Of a DNA stretch of 45,138 nucleotides, positions 15,311-42,608 are shown piece by piece. Both the position numbers and the translations under genes were made by a program. The stretch covers positions 930,001 through 975,138 of the forward strand of contig VRMN01000006.1 of assembly GCA_008690995.1 (NCBI GenBank), given 5' to 3'. The first letter of the stretch is position 1; each line of letters opens with the position of its first letter. The stretch is from Porphyridium purpureum. Lineage: Eukaryota. Under the pieces are notes generated by a model. That model made no database searches and had not been told where the DNA came from. It worked only from the letters and a program-made list of their open reading frames with translations.

Positions 15311-15556
15311 CACATACGTGTCCTACGAGCGTGTCTTGTCGCCCGAAGGAACGTCCACACGACGGCCGTCACGGCAGCGCCGGTGGCGAGCAACTGCAAA
15401 GCTCACTTTGGCGCCTGCCGCGCGCTCTAGTTTGGAAAGCCACGGATCTTTCTCTCGTCCACTTGTGGTCGCCGCACCCAGCGCACGCCTGATGCCGTCA
15501 CCCGGGCGCACATGGACCGCCTAGGTACAGTTGCCAGATCTTTGGGTTCTGAACTG

Positions 15557-16994
15557 AAGTGCGACCAAATCGGATAGGGGACAGTACCTTTTTTCAAGTT
15601 TTACAGGTAAAATGATCTGCTTTACTATAAAAAGGATAGAGGTCCGGTGAACAGGGAATATGAAGGAGGTCAAAACGGATAGGGGACACGGCACATTTCT
15701 GGCCATTACTCAGCCATAGAGAATCGGAATTGGTCGCGGTTTCCTTGCACGCACGCGCCTCAAAGATACGCACAGTTAAATATTCGTTTCGGCAGCGACG
15801 CGTACAAATTGGCCATCACAGGCTGGTCCAAAGTCTCCCAAGCCTGTAAAATGGCATTCTTGAGCTCTAGCACCGTCTGATACTGCCTTGCACCCTCGTA
15901 AACCTTGCGCGCTAGTATCCCCCACAGGTTTTCGATAATATTGAAGTCCGGCGAGTACGCTGGCCAGTCTAGAAGCTCCACATTCTCGTCATTCATGAAA
16001 TTCTTAACCAGGCGACTTGTGTGCACTGGCGCGTTATCCTGCTGAAAAACCATGTTCGGGCCCACCATCTGACGGCAACGGTTCAGCAGTGTCCTCTCGA
16101 AGCATGGAAACATATTTTGCAGCCGTAAATGACCCCTAAATAAAATGCCGGTGAATCTTTCCTCTTGCAGAAATTGCACCCCAAACCATGCATCCACCGC
16201 CGCCGGAATGTCGCGACTGAAGTTCTGGAACGTCCGCCGCACGCTCAACCCACGTCTTGTGGAAACCATCGGGTCCGTCCAGGTTGAACTTCTTTTCGTC
16301 AGTGAACACAATTGCGGCCCAATTGGTCTGTTCCAGCTGATGATGCCTGGCCCAGGCCAGCCTCTTAAGCTTGCGATTGAGTGCCAGTGGCGGACAAGCT
16401 GGAATTTTGCGGTATGCATGCGTGACACTCATTGCCTTCCTGATTGTCGTCAAACTTTGGATTGGTTTAGCTCCACGAATTCGCAGAGCTGCTTGAACCT
16501 GACGTGCCGTGTGAATGTTCGGAAGCTTGGCGATGTTAAAAATCTTCGTTTTGACTGCCTCAGTCAGCTTTAAATCGTTCACATTGGCATATTTCTGGCA
16601 GTAGTCGTTTGGAGCCGACAAATAGCGGGAAACCACGTTCTTCGAGCGCCCAATTTTGGTCGCAATGGCTCTCACGCTGTTGCTCGACTCTCGGAGACCC
16701 TGGATACGTCCTTTCCCCTCGCCCGTAAGGCCAATATTGCGCCCCATGGAGTCAAAATGGAGCTCATTACGAGCTGCGATGGATCCACACTTTTCCGCTT
16801 ACACTGAACCGCCAATGTCCGAGATATTTCGCTTCCACGCAGTGTCCCCTATCCGTTTTGAGCCACAAATTTCGTCATAACCGTTGCAGACGAACCCCGC
16901 CGTTCTACTTTTATAGCAAAAGATCAAAATTTACCATTAATTAACTATTTTTTCTGAAACATTTGACTGTCCCCTATCCGATTTGGTCGCACCT
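15557..16994 (-). mobile_element. Tc1/mariner (Tc3-like, DD34E) DNA transposon, family A copy 1, with IR/DR-type ends
   Basis: TIR core GTGCGACCAAATCGGATAGGGGACAGT at 15559-15585 and its reverse complement at 16966-16992. TA at 16995-16996 (left side reads TG). Inner CGGATAGGGGACAC repeats at ~15676 and inverted at ~16842. Confidence 0.92.
15760..16747 (-). pseudogene. Tc3-like transposase with frameshift/stop near 16100-16140
   Basis: HTH start MGRNIGLT..SVRAIATKIGRSKNVVSRYL; VFTDEKKFNLDGPDG; GGGGCMVWGAIS; in the second frame FQQDNAPVH-(D34E)-WPAYSPDFNIIENLW. Confidence 0.92.
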
Positions 16995-17059
16995 TAGGTT
17001 GTCCCATTCACGGTAAAAGCGATCAGGGTCAGGTGGCAAGGTGACAAAGGTGGTTGAAG

Positions 17060-17195
17060 ACGAAGCTATCAAGACCGCTCGTACTTGAGACGCCTGATTC
17101 AAACATCATGTTCAGCGGTGTCCTAAGACACCGTGCATCGGGTTTCCCCGGCAGGGTCAGGCTCCAATGCTGGGGAAAGAAATCCCCAGCGCTTT
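17060..17195 (-). ncRNA. Candidate Fanzor omegaRNA scaffold overlapping and following the Fanzor stop codon
   Basis: Four tandem stem-loops: 17169-17190 (8-bp stem), 17139-17150 (CGGG-GAAA-CCCG on the minus strand), 17116-17133 (7-bp stem, 4-nt loop), 17069-17088 (5-bp stem). The position matches known TnpB/Fanzor omegaRNA loci. Boundaries are inferred. Confidence 0.55.
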
Positions 17196-18490
17196 GTGAT
17201 TGCGCAAGAAAATATTTTTTGCGCCATTGATATTGCGGTCCATGACCGCTTCACACGTACTAGAACGGCACCTAGAAGTCTTAGCGCCGCCCAGATTCGC
17301 GTGTTTGGTTCCCTACGCGTTGCACGTGTTTAAGGTATAGGTCTCATTGACAAGCACCTGTTTCGAAGTGCTTTTCGTGCATTAAATGGAATTCGTCTTT
17401 GGACGCGGTATTAGCCCTAGGGGAACATCTGACGCGCTACCTTGGAACGTTTCTTGTGTTCACGACGGCGGACCATGTTGGAAACCGCGAACGTGGGCAA
17501 CAGGATAAGGTCACACTCGCGCACCAGGAATGCGGTGATTTACTTGTGGACCTCATCCACTAGGTTGCATATACGGTCATGTTCACAGCGTGCGGCTGGG
17601 CGCAGCGCGCAGCGCCGGTGCGCGTTCTCCACGGTTGCAATCTTGGACATCAAAATCGTCCAAGCCCTTGCAGAGTCGGAAAAAGCGACCGATGTCGCCA
17701 ACTCCCCACGGATATAGCGCGACTCTGACTCGGGTCGAAAAGCGTCTGGAGGTTCGGACGCCCGGGTCTAATGTAACAAGACGCTGTTGCACATCACTTT
17801 GACTTTGGTTTTCGGCCGTGTTTTGAGCTGGCGATTGTTGCTGTTGCTGTCGCAGTTGCTGTCGCAGTTGCTGCCGTGGTAACAGTTCCGGCTTTAGGCT
17901 GAGCGGTGTGTACCTGTGTGGTATGCACAGATACAACTTGTTCGTCGGTGTTCGCTGCAGACGACAATACATATTACTGTGCTCACACGACACAGCGACA
18001 CCTCGACCTGTCCACAACCACACTGGTGCGGTCCACGGCAGCTACAGAAAAACGCAGTCTGCGTGTTGCTCGATCCATTCCTTGCGAATATAAATAGACT
18101 CACTCGCGTGAGCCTTTCGTGAGCGAAAACCGAGCCTGAGATGCGATGCATTTCCCCCTGCCACATTGCTGTGGCATGCTTCAAACGCCGCAATTGCATC
18201 CGCACACGGCCCATCCCGAATACCATATGGAATAGACCTGAGCCACGGGTTGGCACCGACATTCTCACTGCTGTTGTTCACCAGCTTAAACCGCAGATAC
18301 TGTACCCAGCTCACGGTGGTAACACCACTTCGCCGACCTGCGTCCGCCGCTGGACTGATTAGAAGCGCGACGCAGTGATTATACGTCCACCGAGCAGCAC
18401 CGAACAGCTGAAGTATACGCTGATGGTCCACTCGGCGGACGGGACTCACCTTGAATTTTGAGGCGGCTATAGCTTCGCCCCACCGCGTTT
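17157..18490 (-). pseudogene. Fanzor2 / IS607-TnpB-like RNA-guided endonuclease, decayed
   Basis: Reconstructed across frames: KFKVSP..HQRILQLFGAARWTYN; NPWLRSIPYGIRDGPCADAIAAF..LGFRSRK..SESIYIRK; CRLQRTPTNKLYLCIP; ENQ..LVTLDPGVRT/QTLFDP (RuvC-I); WGVGDIGRFFRLCKGLDD/LMSK; DRICNLVDEVHK*ITAFLVRECDLILLPTF.VSNMV; SKVARQM; VNETYTLNTCNA*G..LGGAK..C...C; MDRNINGAKNIFLR. Confidence 0.9.
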
Positions 18491-18929
18491 AACCGCCGTT
18501 ATTTCCTTGTCACACGGCAGCTGTAGACGCCCTTCCGCGCCCACCCGCATCTCCGGGAGCTGATTTCCAACCGATGTTCGTGGCCAGGTTACGGGAAGGA
18601 CTGATGAGCTAGCCCGTCACGCGCCGATCGGCCACCGCTTCCTTACCTTGCACACTGTTGAAAAAGCGAACTCGCCCGATGATGGACGATTGAGGGGGCG
18701 CGAGCGAGCGTACGACCTGCTGATTAGCAAGAGGTCGGCGCGACCGGTAACCGGAACGAGAGCGACCCGACCGGACGGTCGCGCGGAGGGTGCGATGGTC
18801 CCGGCCTTCGCGGCTGCTCTAAAGGGCTGGCGCAGCCGCGCGGAGCAGTATTTGCCTGTCTTTAGAGTTAGAGGCTTCAGTATTTATCATCGGAATTTAT
18901 TGGTACTATAAAAGAGGCTTCTCGGAACA

Positions 18930-19406
18930 ATGGCGTTTGCTTATAGTGGAGCGGTTGCACCTGTGGGTCCGGGCTTATTGGATTTTCCACACACACGAAA
19001 CCACGTCGATTTTGTGCGCGAGCAGAATGCGCCGTCCGCGTACTCTTTCGACGCGGCCGCGGTTAGCGACCAGGTCAACGCTGAGATGGCAGCCGATGCT
19101 TTGGACCAGAATGGTCTTGCTTCCTCCTGGTCACCCCGCCATACTCGCTCGCCGTCGCCTTGCCGAAGGACGCTCTGGCACAGGCGCCGCTTTGCTCTGC
19201 GACTCGCCCGCCGTGCCGCTCGCCGCCCGCGTGCGTGCGCGCATCTTGAGACGGAGACACGCCTCCTTCGCATCGTGTCGCGCGATGTTCTTGTTCAAGT
19301 GCGAGCCAGCCAAACTTCTTCCACGACAATTGAAACCTCTGGCAACGTGCATAAACATCGTGAAATAAAAGCTGTGTTTTTGATTTCAGGGGTTTGCAGG
19401 TTCTAA
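18930..19406 (+). CDS. Hypothetical protein (orphan ORF, may be non-coding)
   Basis: 158-aa ORF with ACAATGG start context and TATAAAAG at 18907 in an AT-rich patch; no recognisable domain. Confidence 0.25.
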   Translation: MAFAYSGAVAPVGPGLLDFPHTRNHVDFVREQNAPSAYSFDAAAVSDQVNAEMAADALDQNGLASSWSPRHTRSPSPCRRTLWHRRRFALRLARRAARRPRACAHLETETRLLRIVSRDVLVQVRASQTSSTTIETSGNVHKHREIKAVFLISGVCRF

Positions 19407-19938
19407 GGAAAAAAATCAACTGCTATAAAGCGTCTTACCAACTCAACTTTCTTGCTGTCTGCGCGCATCCAGCCCGGCTGCGATGTGCCCTGACCCACAT
19501 AGATGCCTCACGGGTGCTCTGCCTTTTGATGGACCACAACTACACTTTAATTCGACATTGCAAACCACGACATACCCTTTCGCTCGCAGAGGATGCTCCA
19601 TGGAACACGTCTCGGCATGGGTCGTTGCCTGCCGTGTGTGTGCGGACACGCGCGCATCAATCTTCCCACCTGGAATCCGAAAACGGTTTCATTTCAAATC
19701 TATCGGTTAACCGTTAAACCGATGTGGCGGAGAAAATTAAGTTTTTGCTGACTCGCACATCAACCGGAAAGTGACAGACATGTGGCGCGCGCAGGGTGAA
19801 GATTGGCACGACAAGACGAACGCGAAGAATCGTAATCGTTTCCACGCCATCCTCTCTGGTCGAACCTAGCAGCCAGAGGCAACCTCGCTGGTCCGCGGCG
19901 TCGGCTGATCACGTGGCGTCGTTCGCACCGGGATAGTG

Positions 19939-21303
19939 ATGGGGCTGGGTGTCGCTTGCGCTCACATCGAGCAGACATTTCTGTCCGTCAGCCCAGAAAA
20001 TCTCGCCGGCAACCCGTCCGCTGGTATCACAACGGTGCGCTTCGAGTATGAGGCGGCGCCAGAGTACATGGAGAAACCCGAGATACTGCCGGGCACGTTC
20101 GACGGCAACGGCTTTGATCGTGGGTTGGCGCTGGCGCGATTGCGGCCGATCATGAACCCAAACCATTTTTTACATGATTTTTTCTTTGTGATTATTTTCT
20201 GGATCGCCCAGTGCTCGGGGCAGCGTGGTGGTGCCCTGGAGCGTATCACAACATGCTCTGCCGACCGGCAGCGTCATCATTCTGGCCAGAATGGGAAGAC
20301 TTGCAACGTCGACGTCTCACTCCCATTTCTTGACGGCCCAGCTTTGTTCGAATGCGGCGAGACTATTTCACTTCTGGATCAAGGCTGGCAGGACATGGCA
20401 ACAAGCTCCGGTGTCGGCTTACAACTTCGCGACTTTGAGCATCACCCTCGGCTATTCCCGGACATTTCTTCGAAAGCATGCACCGGGACACATGCGTTTG
20501 CAGGCAGTATATCCTACTTTGCTGCAAAGTTCCTCCTGGCAAGTGTCAACTCTGCCGGAGGTATTGTCGAGCTTCGCAGCCGGCCACCGGAAGCCACACT
20601 TCCATGGGAGGCAGAGGTCGCGCCGCATAAACAAAGAACACAGGAGCAGACGCTGCTGCGGTTTGTTGTGGGGCACCGTCATCGCGAGGAACTTCGGCGG
20701 CTACGCGTCAAGGGTGCGCGCACGCTCAAGCGGAAGGAGGCGATTGCGCAGTTTCGCACATTTGTGCTTGAGCAGCTCAAAATGGAAAAGGAGGCGCGCG
20801 CAGGTAGCGCTGGGTCGACGTGTCGTATTTTACTCTACACGCGTAATGAAAGCGGAACACACGCGCGTGTTTGGGTTGACGCAGCCGACGTACAGAAGAA
20901 CATTATGCGCGACTTCCCGCACGCGCGCGTGCTGCTACTGCACGCTCTGCCTCCGCGTTTTGCGGATGCCGTGGCTCTGTTTGCTGGCACGGATGTCTTG
21001 GTGTCGCTTCATGGTGGCTGGGAGCCCAATGTTATGTTCATGCCGGATGACGCGGTGGTATTCAATACACCCAAGCATTGCAGCAGCGATACAGGGAAGC
21101 AAAGCGGGCCGAATAGATGGTGGATGCGCTCACTGCAGCTTATTCTGAACGGCCTTCGTGTGCACTGGCTCAACTGTAGCACCGGACAGGAATCTCCCAG
21201 CCATTTTCCTGAAGGTAGACGCGAAGCGACAATGTACCGCTTGCTCGGAGCGTATGACACCATAAAAGACGTGCTCACCACTCAAGTGCGAGCGTGCTTT
21301 TGA
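19939..21303 (+). CDS. Glycosyltransferase family 61 (DUF563)-like protein
   Basis: NPNHFLHDFFF (N..H...D motif) and the C-terminal GT61 signature ILLYTR...R.W...F.DAVALFAGTDVLVSLHGGWEPNVMFMPDDAVVF. Confidence 0.75.
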   Translation: MGLGVACAHIEQTFLSVSPENLAGNPSAGITTVRFEYEAAPEYMEKPEILPGTFDGNGFDRGLALARLRPIMNPNHFLHDFFFVIIFWIAQCSGQRGGALERITTCSADRQRHHSGQNGKTCNVDVSLPFLDGPALFECGETISLLDQGWQDMATSSGVGLQLRDFEHHPRLFPDISSKACTGTHAFAGSISYFAAKFLLASVNSAGGIVELRSRPPEATLPWEAEVAPHKQRTQEQTLLRFVVGHRHREELRRLRVKGARTLKRKEAIAQFRTFVLEQLKMEKEARAGSAGSTCRILLYTRNESGTHARVWVDAADVQKNIMRDFPHARVLLLHALPPRFADAVALFAGTDVLVSLHGGWEPNVMFMPDDAVVFNTPKHCSSDTGKQSGPNRWWMRSLQLILNGLRVHWLNCSTGQESPSHFPEGRREATMYRLLGAYDTIKDVLTTQVRACF

Positions 21304-22080
21304 TGCTTCACATCATAGTTAGACGCGTTCCGGACGGAACGGCCGATGTCGGGCGTCAGATTTGCATCACGGCACCAAAATTGGAAATGGGCCCGCCCAG
21401 TAATGCGAGATTCCGAGTGCACTCCACTGCGACCACCAACGCATTTTGTGAGTTGTACTCCATCAACGGGCGTGGTGCAGAGGCGCGTTCAGTCGAAAAG
21501 AAAGGGCCTGGCAGGCTCAATGGCGTAAAATCACCTTTGCTTGACAGCTGCACTTTTTGACCGGAAAACACAAAGCTCATCGGATATGTTCACGAGTATA
21601 TGCTGTTCCAACCCGTGCACCCCTTTTCCGATTGCCGCGATGGCATCGGAGCGCATACACGACTTGAGAGCCTTTTTGCTTCGCAAATTACGATAGCGAA
21701 ACACTCAAGCACTCTCACACGTACACATACCCATGCTGTCGTGCGGATGGCCGCCACCCGACAGCACGGCGTGCCTGGACAACGTGCGCCGCGTCGTTGC
21801 CAAACGCGAGAGCGCATGCATCGTGCTTGAGCGTCATGGTGCGCGCCGGAATCCGCTGCGCGATTGTGCTTCAGTATCGGCACCTTGATGGCGGTTATCC
21901 TTGCTTCAACCCTAGCCCTTGTTCTTGGGTGTCGGCTCGAGAAAGCGAATGTGGGACACAGAGGGAGCTACGCCTCAAGTCCGTCAAGCGAGTAACCGGC
22001 GTCTGAGGCAACGGCCAGGGGCCATTGTCTTCCACTTGGAAAGACCGGGTTCTCGAGGAGATTGATTCACTGCACACGCC

Positions 22081-37998: not shown

Positions 37999-39541
37999 CA
38001 GTCCTGGCCAAAATGTTTGCAACACCCTCATAAAAAGTGAAATTCGTGTAAAAGTGAAGAATCTTGATAGACAAGGGTATGCTTTGAGCACGCCAATCGA
38101 TCGCGCGTCCCAAGAAACACGGGATCGTCCAACCGGGAGGAAAAGGCAAGGAAAGAGCGCATGGGCAATGGAGACAGCAAAAAGGGGGTATTGGCGAGGG
38201 GCGCAGGTTTTGGAACGTAACAAAGAAACACGAAGATCAAGAAGGATGAGACTTTAGTACTTGGTGTGGTGGCCGCGCGCGTCTAGTACAGCTTGAAGAC
38301 GGCGAGGCATGGACTCCAAAAGTGGAACTACGTACTTTTGGGCCTCGGTCGCCCACGCCGCAAGGACGGCAGCCTTAAGTTCTGCGACGCGCTGCGAACT
38401 GGCGGCCTTTTCGGTAAACCACGCGCGACAAGACGCCCCAAATGTTTTCAATTGGGTTAAGGTCCGGAGACCTTGCAGGCCACGGCAGCACAGTGACGCC
38501 GAGTGCGTCGAGCCACGCCTTGGTCGAGTTGGCCGTATGTGCCGGGGCATTGTCTTGCTGGAAAGTGAAATTGAAGTCATACATTTCCAGGCCGAACGGA
38601 AGCAAGGCTTCCAGCAAGACTTGTTGATACTTAACGGCATTCAAGCCACCCTCGACGAAGACGGCCATTGTTAGGCCGCGCAGGGACATACCGGCCCACA
38701 TGTGAACCTTGCCACCTCCAGAGTGCTGGCGCCTGGCGTACGAACTTGACTTAGCGCGACAGTCGACCCATCGCTGCGAGGAGCCGAACGGACCATCGCA
38801 GCTCCAAATCTTCTCGTCTGAAAAGACCACTTGATGCCAGAAAGCCATTGGTTTCGCAATGAATGCAGTGGCAAACGCCAATCGCTTTCTGATGTTGTCA
38901 GACGACAGCGAAGGTTTCCGCGAGACTCGCTTGTAGCGAAGAAAGCCTGCTGCTTGAAGCGTCCGACGCACTGTCCTGGCCGAGCACTGCAAGTGCAGCT
39001 CGTGAACCACCTGTCCGGACGTCAGTGCATCAACAGATACGGCGCGAATGATGCGGCGTTCCGATTTGCGACTCAAAAGCCGTTTCGGACCTGGCTTCTT
39101 GCGGACAATTCGGCGACCCCTTAACGTCAGATAACGGCTCACAGTTGCATAGAACGGCCGCGAGCGATCTGGGCGAGGCTTCAGAGCCTTCGCAATGGCT
39201 CGTACCGACAGCTCCTGGCCCGCAAGGGCGTCGATCTGCCCTTTTTTGTGTTCCAACAGCCACGGCGCCATTGTCCGGCCGTTGCGCGCTCACTTTCGAT
39301 CCGGAGACTCTCCACTTGCGCACGAGGAGATGGATCAGCCAGCGAAGATCCTTTGAGCACCTTCTGATGGTCTGGGGAAAACAAAAACGCGCGCGCCGCG
39401 CCTTGGTTCATCGTTATGCTTGATGTTCACAATGTTAAAAAAGAGTTAAAAGTAAACATTCAATCAAAATGAGCTCTTGTACTATAAGATCCAGTTCGTT
39501 GGACTAAAATGCAGATGTTGCAAAAATCTTTGCCAGGACTG
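37999..39541 (-). mobile_element. Tc1/mariner DD34E DNA transposon, family B, full length
   Basis: 26-bp TIRs CAGTCCTGGCCAAAATGTTTGCAACA vs CAGTCCTGGCAAAGATTTTTGCAACA (23/26 identical), with TA duplication at 37997-37998 and 39542-39543. Confidence 0.95.
38254..39271 (-). pseudogene. Tc1-family transposase with one frameshift near 38390
   Basis: HTH (LSVRAIAKAL), VVFSDEK, FQQDNAPAH-(D34E)-WPARSPDLNPIENIW; the canonical tail ESMPRRLQAVLDARGHHTKY is in another frame. Confidence 0.92.
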
Positions 39542-39891: not shown

Positions 39892-41330
39892 AGGGGCGAT
39901 CAAATCAGAAAGGGGACAGTACCATTTTCCAAGTTTTACCAGTAAAATGATCTGCTTTACTATAAAAGGGAAAGAGGTCCGGTGAAAAGGGAATGTGGAA
40001 GAGGTCAAAACGGATAGGGGACACGACACAGTTCCAGCCATTACTCAGCAATGAAAGGTCGGAATTGGTCGCCCTTTCCTTGTGCGTATGCGCCTTGAAG
40101 ATACGCACAGTCAAATATGCGTTTCGGCAGCGACGCGTACAAATTGGCCATCACAGGCTGGTCCAAAGTCTCCCAAGCCAGTAAGATGGTATTTTTCAGC
40201 TCTAGCACCATCTGAAACTCCCTTGCACCCACGTAAACCTTGCGCGCTAGTATTCTCCACAGGTTCTCGATAATATTGAAGTCCGGCGAGTACGCTGGCC
40301 AGTCTAGAAGCTCCACATTCTTGTCATTCATGAAATTCTTAACCAGGCGACTTTTGTGCAGCAGCGCGATATCCTGCAGAAAAACCACGTTCGGGTCCAC
40401 CATCTGGCGGCAGCGGTCCAGCATGCCGTCATTCTGAAGCATGGAAACAGAATTGGCAGCGGCGAAGATACCGTCAATGAGTTGAAATTGCATATCTCCT
40501 GCCACAAAAATGGCGCACCGAACCGTACACCGACCGCCGCCCAAATGTCACGACCAAACGTTTGAAAGATCCCATGTACGCTCATGCCATGTCTTGTGGA
40601 AAGCATCTGGCCCATCCAGATTGCAAATTATTTCGTCCGTGACCGCAACTGTTGCCCAATTCATTCGTTCCAGCACATGCCGTCTTTTCAAGGCGAGCCA
40701 CGTGAGGTCGAATTTGAGTGTCACAGGTACTTCAGCTGGATTTCTCCCGCATGCATAGGTCAAACTCATTGCTGTCCTGATTTTCATTGAATTTAGGACC
40801 CGAATCAGACCGCAATTGCGCTGTGCAGCACGAATTTGACGGCCCTTATTTACGGGCCGAATCCTTTTGATATCAGAAGTCTTGATTTTTCATGCCTTTG
40901 TGCGGTTTGGAGCGTCCGCAGTAGAGGTACTACGTACGTGTACGATGGGAGCATCTACCTAGAACAAACCGCATTGCATGGAGCACCTAATTTGTGTCAC
41001 AACAGCTCTCACTTTTTGTCCCACTCCCAAAGGCCCTGAAAACGTCATATCTTCTCATCTGAGCAGTCAATATTGCGATGTATGGTGTCGAAATGAAGCT
41101 CTTCGCGAGAGTCGCTCGATGCGCTTTTCTCCTCTTCCTTTCCATTATCCTTTCCCGAGATATAAGGCTTCCCTTGACTGTTCCCTATCCCATTTGTGCA
41201 ACAAATTTCTTGCACTCCGGCACCATCCGCCCCGCCCCAAATATTGTCTTAGTAAAAGGTCAAAATGTAACATGAACTGTCTAATTTTTCTTAGAAATTC
41301 GACTTTCCCCTATCCGTTCTGGTCGCACCT
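39892..41330 (-). mobile_element. Tc3-like transposon family A copy 2 (degenerate)
   Basis: TA-flanked TIRs AGGGGCGATCAAATCAGAAAGGGGACAGT and CCCCTATCCGTTCTGGTCGCACCT; same length (~1.44 kb) as copy 1; LLDWPAYSPDFNIIENLW retained; NWATVAVTDEIICNLDGPD is degenerate. Confidence 0.92.
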
Positions 41331-42608
41331 TATTATATGAAGGCACACAGACCCGGACACGCCGACACGAGCGAAGGGCAAGCTGTAAATCGAGAAGGAG
41401 GACTGCGGTCAGGAGGGGAGATAGGGATATGGGGCCGCGAATTAGAAGGCGAAACAGCTGCGCGGCTGCCAGCAGGAGAAAACGAAAGTAGGGGTAAAGG
41501 GTGGGTTGCGCAAGAGTAGGAAATCAGCAGCAAAAACTCGGTCAGCATTGATACAGTTCCATGGACACTCGCAAGCAGGGTGTGCTGGCTTCGGGCCTGC
41601 TGCTCCCCTGCGTCCTCCATGTTTTCGTCGGAAGCACCCAGACCCAGGCAAGTGCAGGTATAGTCTACGGCATTGAGCACGATATCGCGGAGAAGAACAT
41701 CTTTGCCCTGGACTTTTTCGCCGGCTTGGGCATTGAGCCCAGCATCACGCTAGTCGCAAACGTGACAACGGCGGCGGCCGAGGATCCAGATTACCCAGTA
41801 CAGTGCATTGGATAGGTGAACAGGGTGACGCGCACAGGGCCTCTGTATGAATGTAGTCCGAGTGGACTGGCTTACGACGGCGACTCCCTTCTGTATTTCG
41901 CCTTATTTGACCGATTTGGCATGAAGGCATCACGATTGTGCTTGTCCTCATTCGAGACGGATTCGTTCGGGTTTGCTGCCACCCCTTGGCGGGACTGTGA
42001 CGGGCGCCGCCTTCAACCCGAATACGTACCAGTATGTGTGGATAGACCAAGGCGCGCTACAATCTGAGGGCCGTATTCTGGTCCTCCAGTTCGAGCGACT
42101 GAACAGAACGACGGGCTAGATTATGGAGCGAGTCACAAACACTATGTTCCGCACCGTGACGACGGACCCGAATGCTCCAGCTGCCGAGCTGCCTTTCACT
42201 TATCGTGGCGGAGATATAGCGATTGACGCTACCGGTATGTTGCACGGCAGCAGCGTCGGAACGGGCGATGGCTTCAAGTATTTCTTTTCCATCGACTTGA
42301 ACTATGCTGCTGGAGACCTCCGCACAACTCCCGGAACGCCGTACGCTTCCCGCCTGATCCACGCAGATCCAAAGGACTCCACTCAGGTGAGCACTTTGAC
42401 CAGGTTTGCAACTGCAGATCGGGAGGCATTTGACGCGGATGGGAGATTGATCAGCCAAAAGAGCGAGCGAGGCATCTTTAGTGTCGTGGACACTGCGACA
42501 GGCGCGAATGGTGAAGTGGGCGTCGAGGGTGTGGATTACGTCAGGCTGTTCCAGATGGGCACGCTGCACACGTTTGCAGACCTTGCGTCGGCTCTGGTCT
42601 TTGAAGCG

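Follow-up and report, generated by a model that had tools for sequence, protein, structure and literature searches.

A dead copy of a multi-copy Fanzor2-type element without a recognisable tnpA in the red alga Porphyridium purpureum

We analysed a stretch of 45,138 nt of the Porphyridium purpureum assembly (contig VRMN01000006.1), hereafter called the window. Its minus strand harbours, at 17091..19310, what is very probably a dead member of a Fanzor2 family with several copies, whose ancestor was likely an IS607-type transposon with an RNA-guided homing nuclease. The catalytic layout, the lesions, an insert that splits the gene, the right end, the paralogues and the absence of a recognisable tnpA gene were observed directly. 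The right end of this IS607-derived element is exact, and its left end is approximate (19290-19315). The window copy itself is a pseudogene. The Fanzor class is known, and several of its members have been characterised; what appears to be new is a red-algal Fanzor2 lineage.

Structure of the element and its predicted omega-RNA

An earlier note made from the sequence alone described a near full-length Fanzor2 relic at 17157..18490. Three-frame translation confirmed that the blocks it named all lie on the minus strand in the order FGAARWTYN, PWLRSIPYGIR, LDPGVRT, QTLFDP (after a slip), RICNLVDEVHK, DLILLPTF, VNETYTLNTC, C-x2-stop...C-x4-C and DRNINGAKNI; this order and match are far beyond chance. 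However, the gene does not begin at 18490 but extends to a likely ATG at 19273, and it is split by an insert at 18991-18656. The compact size noted earlier is an artefact of the missed N-terminal part, since the 336-nt insert hides some 200 N-terminal codons of a full protein of ~600 aa. The best homologue, the P. purpureum protein FVE85_6921 (P0001; 71% identity), also matches 19306-18983, and from the ATG at 19273 the window translation starts as in P0001.

The likely start codon and the N-terminal region, with a PFWS..WS..STWFRV block, occupy 18992..19273 (77% identity to P0001 over 83 codons; tblastn E=3e-20) and are frameshifted near 19133; the frame listing indicates that two further slips near 19250 are likely. 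Stops at 19077 and 19065 were rejected as lesions, as they lie in the wrong frame. The remainder of the N-terminal domain, the REC/WED region and RuvC-I follow at 17751..18655 (72% identity to P0001 over 351 codons; 197 bits on profile A2), with slips near 18614 and 18481, a stop at 18044 and a Gln-rich expansion near 17836-17873. The Gln-rich repeat between WED and RuvC-I (17821-17896) measures 74 nt in the window and 32 nt in one paralogue contig; the difference keeps the frame. The RuvC-I DPG motif (17760..17768, within LDPGVRT at 17771-17751) has retained its catalytic Asp (GAC, 17768-17766). The bridge helices and the RuvC-II region (17384..17750) have a Pro (17497-17495) at the canonical Glu position, together with slips near 17750, 17703, 17654 and 17380 and stops at 17542, 17419 and 17413. 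The relocated catalytic Glu (Ealt; GAG, 17343..17345) is found six residues ahead of the first zinc-finger Cys and 135 residues past the RuvC-I Asp. Finally, 17157..17342 contains the zinc finger, with a stop at 17315 in place of the second Cys, RuvC-III, with an Asn (AAT, 17234-17232) in place of the catalytic Asp, and the likely natural stop (17159-17157).

The five in-frame stops, the several frameshifts and the RuvC-III substitution that had been reported were thus all recovered, the frameshift-aware alignment giving at least seven frameshifts. Together with the insert, these lesions show that the window copy is dead beyond doubt. Its relationship to TnpB/Fanzor-type proteins was borne out by profile searches, in which both the C-terminal piece and the joined pieces matched. 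The piece at 17360-17160 matched Pfam Cas12f1-like_TNB above cut-off (E=7.7e-7), and the two other pieces of the window gene tested had no Pfam match. Against a profile built from 12 intact relatives, the seven pieces joined with X scored 454 bits, and none of 200 shuffles exceeded 3.3 bits.

The insert (18656..18991, 336 nt) has TG...CA ends and is flanked by a 5-bp target duplication, GTGTG, at 18996-18992 and 18655-18651. From this end structure, we take it to be a solo LTR. Its depth in DNA run X1 indicates that it is multi-copy. The insert family is transcribed, with a depth of up to 270 in RNA run X22 on the strand opposite that of Fanzor. In one X1 contig, the insert end is connected to a Tc1 copy (16072 to 18656).

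The element does not end at 17157 with the gene, as first thought, but 66 nt further on, at 17091. Close relatives terminate in GAGTAGGCG, and the window has GAATCAGGCG with 17091 as its last base; AGGCG is common to the right ends of the window element and of 11 close loci. In RNA reads of one paralogue (608 from X22, 147 from X21), the match breaks off exactly at 17091 and the reads continue into a different flank. On the left, paralogue depth falls to the single-copy level, from 1513 to 272, at the 19316 bin. With the left end approximate, we found neither a TIR of the element (907/1000 random stretches score as well) nor a target duplication of 5-8 bp. A TIR-like match of 19390-19379 to the right end was discarded as chance-level.

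An omega-RNA scaffold overlapping the ORF end is predicted at 17091..17260 on the minus strand on the basis of a pseudoknot, fold stability, covariation and paralogue RNA reads. The pseudoknot halves in the window are GCCTGA (17162-17157) and TCAGGC (17097-17092). In the 11 close loci, GCCTAC just inside the ORF end pairs with GTAGGC at the terminus, which amounts to two compensatory changes between the window and its relatives. A strict pseudoknot pattern was found in 20/86 sequences, with nine different pairs, compared with 10/268 in a cross-locus control. The fold of the scaffold region has a z-score of -4.5, and 0/200 shuffles were as stable. The predicted structure fits the pseudoknot of IS607 TnpB and Fanzor2 as described in parts of PMC10711439 and PMC11832414, and a right-end omega-RNA with a pseudoknot, a Fanzor2 feature, is thus predicted to be present. 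The guide would begin at about 17090. As the TGA at 17159 forms part of one pseudoknot half, it is most likely the natural stop.

The scaffold is covered by RNA reads to a depth of 540 in X22 and 162 in X21. Their strand is that of a sense transcript, as judged by the orientation of reads on the GT61 gene, and they carry the letters of a paralogue, not those of the window. In X22, neighbouring host genes have a depth of 8 or less, compared with 540 at the paralogue 3' end. Since these are 150-nt cDNA reads, they represent read-through transcription of another copy and demonstrate no processed guide RNA; a host transcript carrying an element fragment is an equally possible source. A further RNA peak, at 17844-18027, stems from reads on a CAG-like repeat with back-joints and is regarded as an artefact, and a snoRNA candidate was rejected, its single Rfam match being sub-threshold (E=0.41).

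Classification and relatives

The assignment to the Fanzor2 type made in the earlier note is supported by the motifs, their spacing, a structure match and the tree. The Fanzor fingerprint, as given in sections of PMC10711439, consists of a DPG motif in RuvC-I and a RuvC-II Glu located six residues before the zinc finger and 120-160 residues past the RuvC-I Asp, with Pro or Gly at the canonical site. The window has the DPG motif, the E-x6-C arrangement with a spacing of 135 residues, and the Pro in DLILLPTF. The C4 zinc finger and the RuvC-III Asp are broken in the window copy, and both are present in paralogue reads and in relatives. An intact relative passes the NCBIfam guided_TnpB cut-off.

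When the family profile was compared with solved structures, the mimivirus Fanzor2 9B0L came out on top (E=9.7e-41; next match 2.8e-16), the match being strong in the RuvC/zinc-finger half only, with 11 bits for the N-terminal half. A fold search with a model of the relative P0002 (mean pLDDT 64) also ranked 9B0L first, by a small margin (3.8e-16 vs 4.1e-15 for TnpB 8H1J). No Fanzor1 structure was named among the 27 sequence matches or the listed fold matches. The family thus appears TnpB-like and nearer to IS607 TnpB/ApmFz2 than to Fanzor1, as judged from sequence profiles, a structural model and a tree that carried no Fanzor1 references. By analogy, RNA-guided cleavage of dsDNA next to a target motif would have been a property of the ancestor; the window copy cannot make the protein.

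We built a quick, unrooted tree of 79 rows, comprising the window, two paralogues, 17 proteins and 59 of 110 distinct full-length locus proteins (25/25 viral, 16/43 metagenomic and 18/42 prokaryotic), with no Fanzor1 or named Fanzor2 reference. The window sequence groups with the two paralogues (SH-aLRT 100), and this trio is nested in a clade of 25 rows (100) with giant-virus-bin and unassigned metagenome proteins, apart from the cyanobacterial pro-Fanzors. The algal branch is long (0.62) and of odd composition. This placement argues against a direct cyanobacterial or plastid origin, the tree being unrooted and no donor nameable. The viral-contig scan yielded relatives when run with an alignment and none when run with a single protein. 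Five copies that are 65-81% alike (L001, L002, L086, L090 and L099) come from a single metagenome, and two of these copies are located in a giant-virus bin, with ankyrin genes around them. L001, without tnpA, and L002, with tnpA, are a possible non-autonomous/autonomous pair.

Host context, paralogues and alternative explanations

The element lies in a eukaryotic genome, among genes for TRAPPC9, an SPB4-like helicase and a GT61 glycosyltransferase and Tc1/mariner elements. For two window proteins, the named mates in the 90% clusters are from P. purpureum. The stretch 17000-21500 is present in 20 of the 24 listed runs, from eight studies, the query having included a host gene; two marine-metagenome RNA runs, with shares of 0.36 and 0.32, were left aside. 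A Copia-type reverse transcriptase/RNase H fragment is found at 63-1307 of the window (RVT_2, E=2e-13). The window holds three Tc1/mariner elements. Those at 15554-16997 and 39896-41332 are 73.6% alike and have TIRs, the transposase of the former being broken. The third (38375-39271) is one of a cluster of ten nearly identical Tc3-type transposases, a sign that this family may have been active recently.

It is hardly credible that the segment is bacterial or viral contamination misjoined in the assembly. The nearest intact relatives do include giant-virus-bin copies and unassigned metagenome contigs, and no single contig piece covers the whole stretch, but exact contig pieces bridge both sides of the element: X1 record 8 (19213-20140, 0 other letters) joins its 5' part to the host glycosyltransferase gene, and X1 record 4 (16968-17628) and, from a different study, X10 record 13 (17026-17351) bridge the right end. 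Run X1 may itself have supplied the DNA of the window. In addition, the element carries a host-type LTR insert, and its two paralogues are located on 5.7-Mb and 238-kb contigs annotated P. purpureum. Among prokaryotes, even the best full-length relatives of P0002 share no more than 31-38% identity with it and belong to other clades, and the 24 window ORFs scanned matched no viral gene family. Contamination is therefore largely refuted already, and the eukaryotic host proposed earlier stands. Capture of the Fanzor gene by a eukaryotic cut-and-paste transposon such as the adjacent Tc1/mariner, which would make it a Fanzor2*, is improbable. A Tc1/mariner ends 93 nt from the right end of the element, tnpA is absent, and portions of PMC10711439 describe such cases for Chloropicon and molluscs. 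However, the Tc1/mariner at 15554-16997 is a separate element whose own TIR pair encloses its transposase alone, no further TIR is found upstream of the Fanzor gene, and the match to a second Tc1 copy is confined to 15561-16996. The flanks of other Tc1 copies differ, as do those of the transcribed Fanzor paralogue. The Fanzor end has kept an IS607-clade terminus, and no TIRs with a TSD were found to enclose the Fanzor gene, the left end being approximate.

Another explanation is that the family is still active, with one or more intact copies in the alga making a working nuclease and omega-RNA and the window copy being only a dead sibling. We regard this as unlikely, and the existence of an intact algal copy is likewise doubtful. 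Paralogues clearly exist: summed X1 contig depth is 790-2300 over the ORF vs 270-420 on its flanks, a difference that shows paralogues and is no copy number. In favour of activity, X1 contigs of paralogues are without the slips at 17652 (depth 918/1377), 17707 and 17748 (847/1306), and the RuvC-III residue in paralogue RNA reads is Asp (167/168 in X21 and 439/448 in X22). Among 40 of 60 rows, which do not include the positions of the stops at 18044, 17542 and 17413, paralogue reads also carry Cys at 17315, Trp at 17419 and the family TSK motif; moreover, the 3' end of one paralogue is transcribed (depth 540 in X22). However, both annotated paralogues are broken: P0001 loses its frame after residue 467 and has DPS in place of DPG, and P0187 is half a gene, frameshifted and fused to other sequence. 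No intact algal protein was obtained from homologue searches or a profile search, and a homologue search with a 99-aa RuvC-II piece gave nothing at E<=0.001 among nine candidates. With a likeness of only about 80-90% between copies, the family seems old, and the retention of most ancestral codons in each copy is what independent decay would produce. The aligned paralogue pieces are at most 152 nt each, some of them truncated, and the more intact-looking ones are short contigs. Even when 80% likeness is accepted, RNA depth at 17240-17570 does not exceed 30. The codon positions of 28 listed differences (13 third, 11 second and four first) come from a ranked subset with both branches mixed and carry no weight here. 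Of the family proposed in the earlier note, the multi-copy nature thus holds, on the evidence of paralogue depth and the two annotated paralogues, but the intact copies it anticipated did not appear, as all three copies seen at length are broken. Neither annotated paralogue has a Pfam or NCBIfam match, and hence gene callers miss such elements.

Lost transposase, N-terminal domain and known systems

Returning to the IS607-derived Fanzor2 element, we looked for its transposase. A TnpA match is present in 105 of 160 related viral and metagenomic loci, and in L002 the IS607 transposase was confirmed above cut-off inside the Fanzor ORF, in another frame. In the window, a profile of 75 TnpA sequences found nothing in the six frames (best iE 2.1). 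As it has no serine-recombinase tnpA, the window element is classed as a non-autonomous IS607 derivative and not as a complete IS607 (IS607EU). An apparent decayed TnpA near 19060 in the second frame, spotted by eye (RGRVER vs RDRLAR), had no profile support, and we do not claim it as a remnant.

That IS607 has two overlapping ORFs is already in print (PMC3673617). Among 95 distinct loci whose tnpA RDRL.RFG motif lies in an open 300-nt interval, 89 have a +1 frame over tnpA that is free of stops and runs on into the Fanzor ORF (24/25 viral, 22/26 metagenomic and 43/44 prokaryotic), and one has an open +2 frame. On +1-frame profiles, the N-terminal piece of the window scored weakly (13-14 bits; E about 0.003 at Z=1000), P0001 scored 23-28 bits and the tnpA-less L001 40-64 bits; none of the three gave anything significant on TnpA-frame profiles of the same DNA. 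On balance, we favour the idea that overprinting of the +1 frame of tnpA gave rise to the additional N-terminal domain of Fanzor2, with the red-algal family as a natural experiment. In the simplest reading of these sequences, the overprinted frame would have turned into a domain that the protein requires and would have persisted after the transposase was lost. As this domain outlasts the tnpA frame both in the window and in L001, such an origin gains independent support; none of the publications listed in literature searches appeared relevant to it. The structured N-terminal domain of ApmFz2 comprises residues 53-130 (PMC11832414), and the 11 bits for the N-terminal half weakly suggest that it may be the same as the +1-frame domain.

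In six of eight readable loci of the clade (L002 at 4717, L081 at 179, L082, L083, L086 and L100), tnpA seems to start with CTG, and L088 and L148 have ATG. In the same six loci, the ATG of the Fanzor frame is found about 15 codons downstream, within tnpA YG codons. By leaky scanning past the weak CTG to the strong ATG, a single eukaryotic mRNA could yield both proteins.

The way in which the ancestral element worked may be outlined by analogy with characterised Fanzor2 and IS607 TnpB systems. The transcript through the right end would be trimmed to an omega-RNA, with a scaffold held by the pseudoknot and the first 15-20 flank bases as the guide. The nuclease would cut empty sites beside a short motif; once the breaks are repaired on the template of the filled allele, the element would be restored. 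The family could have spread without a transposase of its own, moved in trans or by homing. The Fanzor frame would have remained under selection until tnpA was unrecognisable, after which the family would have decayed, and the N-terminal domain would be the surviving +1 frame of the lost tnpA.

The species, the accession and three family peptide motifs are absent, bar two apparently unrelated rows, from the searchable supplements of three Fanzor catalogues (PMC10711439, PMC10530073 and PMC10432273; first 400 characters per cell, without one Saito file, the Jiang supplementary PDF and Repbase). These rows of Table S5 of PMC10711439, KAA8495554.1 and KAA8499273.1, are P. purpureum proteins labelled Fanzor that look like unrelated zinc-finger proteins. 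As part of the overprinting proposal, we consider it rather probable that the family is a red-algal Fanzor2 lineage, one that is absent from the three catalogues, has a guide-RNA pseudoknot with covariation and includes a copy whose transcription still runs through the guide end. KAA8495554.1 and KAA8499273.1 look TFIIH p44-like and PEX2-like and are probably false positives of a pattern search. With our analysis, the known range of Fanzor2 comes to include a red alga and a clade in which intact, uncharacterised members exist (P0002/L081, L002, L086 and P0047). As the right end and pseudoknot of the intact clade members are now defined, they are assayable as natural proteins.

Among known systems, the mimivirus Fanzor2 ApmFz2/ApmFNuc, which is IS607-like (9B0L; PMC11832414, PMC10530073, PMC3627910), shares with the window element the DPG motif, the Pro at the canonical RuvC-II site, the Glu before a C4 zinc finger (broken in the window copy), a long N-terminal extension, a right-end omega-RNA pseudoknot locus (predicted in the window) and the lack of any TIR or target duplication found. 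In contrast, the window element is a dead copy without tnpA, in a red-algal nuclear host, and belongs to a distinct clade. The pro-Fanzors/TnpB2, cyanobacterial IS607 TnpB proteins treated in PMC10711439, similarly have DPG, Ealt and a +1-frame overlap with tnpA (in 43/44 prokaryotic loci), but they form a separate clade, have prokaryotic hosts and share 31-38% full-length identity with the intact member of the family. The Fanzor2* of Chloropicon primus and molluscs, as reported in parts of PMC10711439, also occur in cellular eukaryotes without an IS607 tnpA, and by eye the Chloropicon protein (Saito supplement) has the same PFW..LPT..WFS N-terminal motif. Unlike the window element, which keeps its IS607-clade right end and has no TIR/TSD found, they sit in cut-and-paste transposons with TIRs and TSDs. 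Lastly, CMe-1 of the red alga Cyanidioschyzon merolae is likewise an old multi-copy Fanzor family with copies about 80% alike and no TIR; it is treated under Fanzor1 in the relevant part of PMC3627910, whereas the window family is of the Fanzor2 type.
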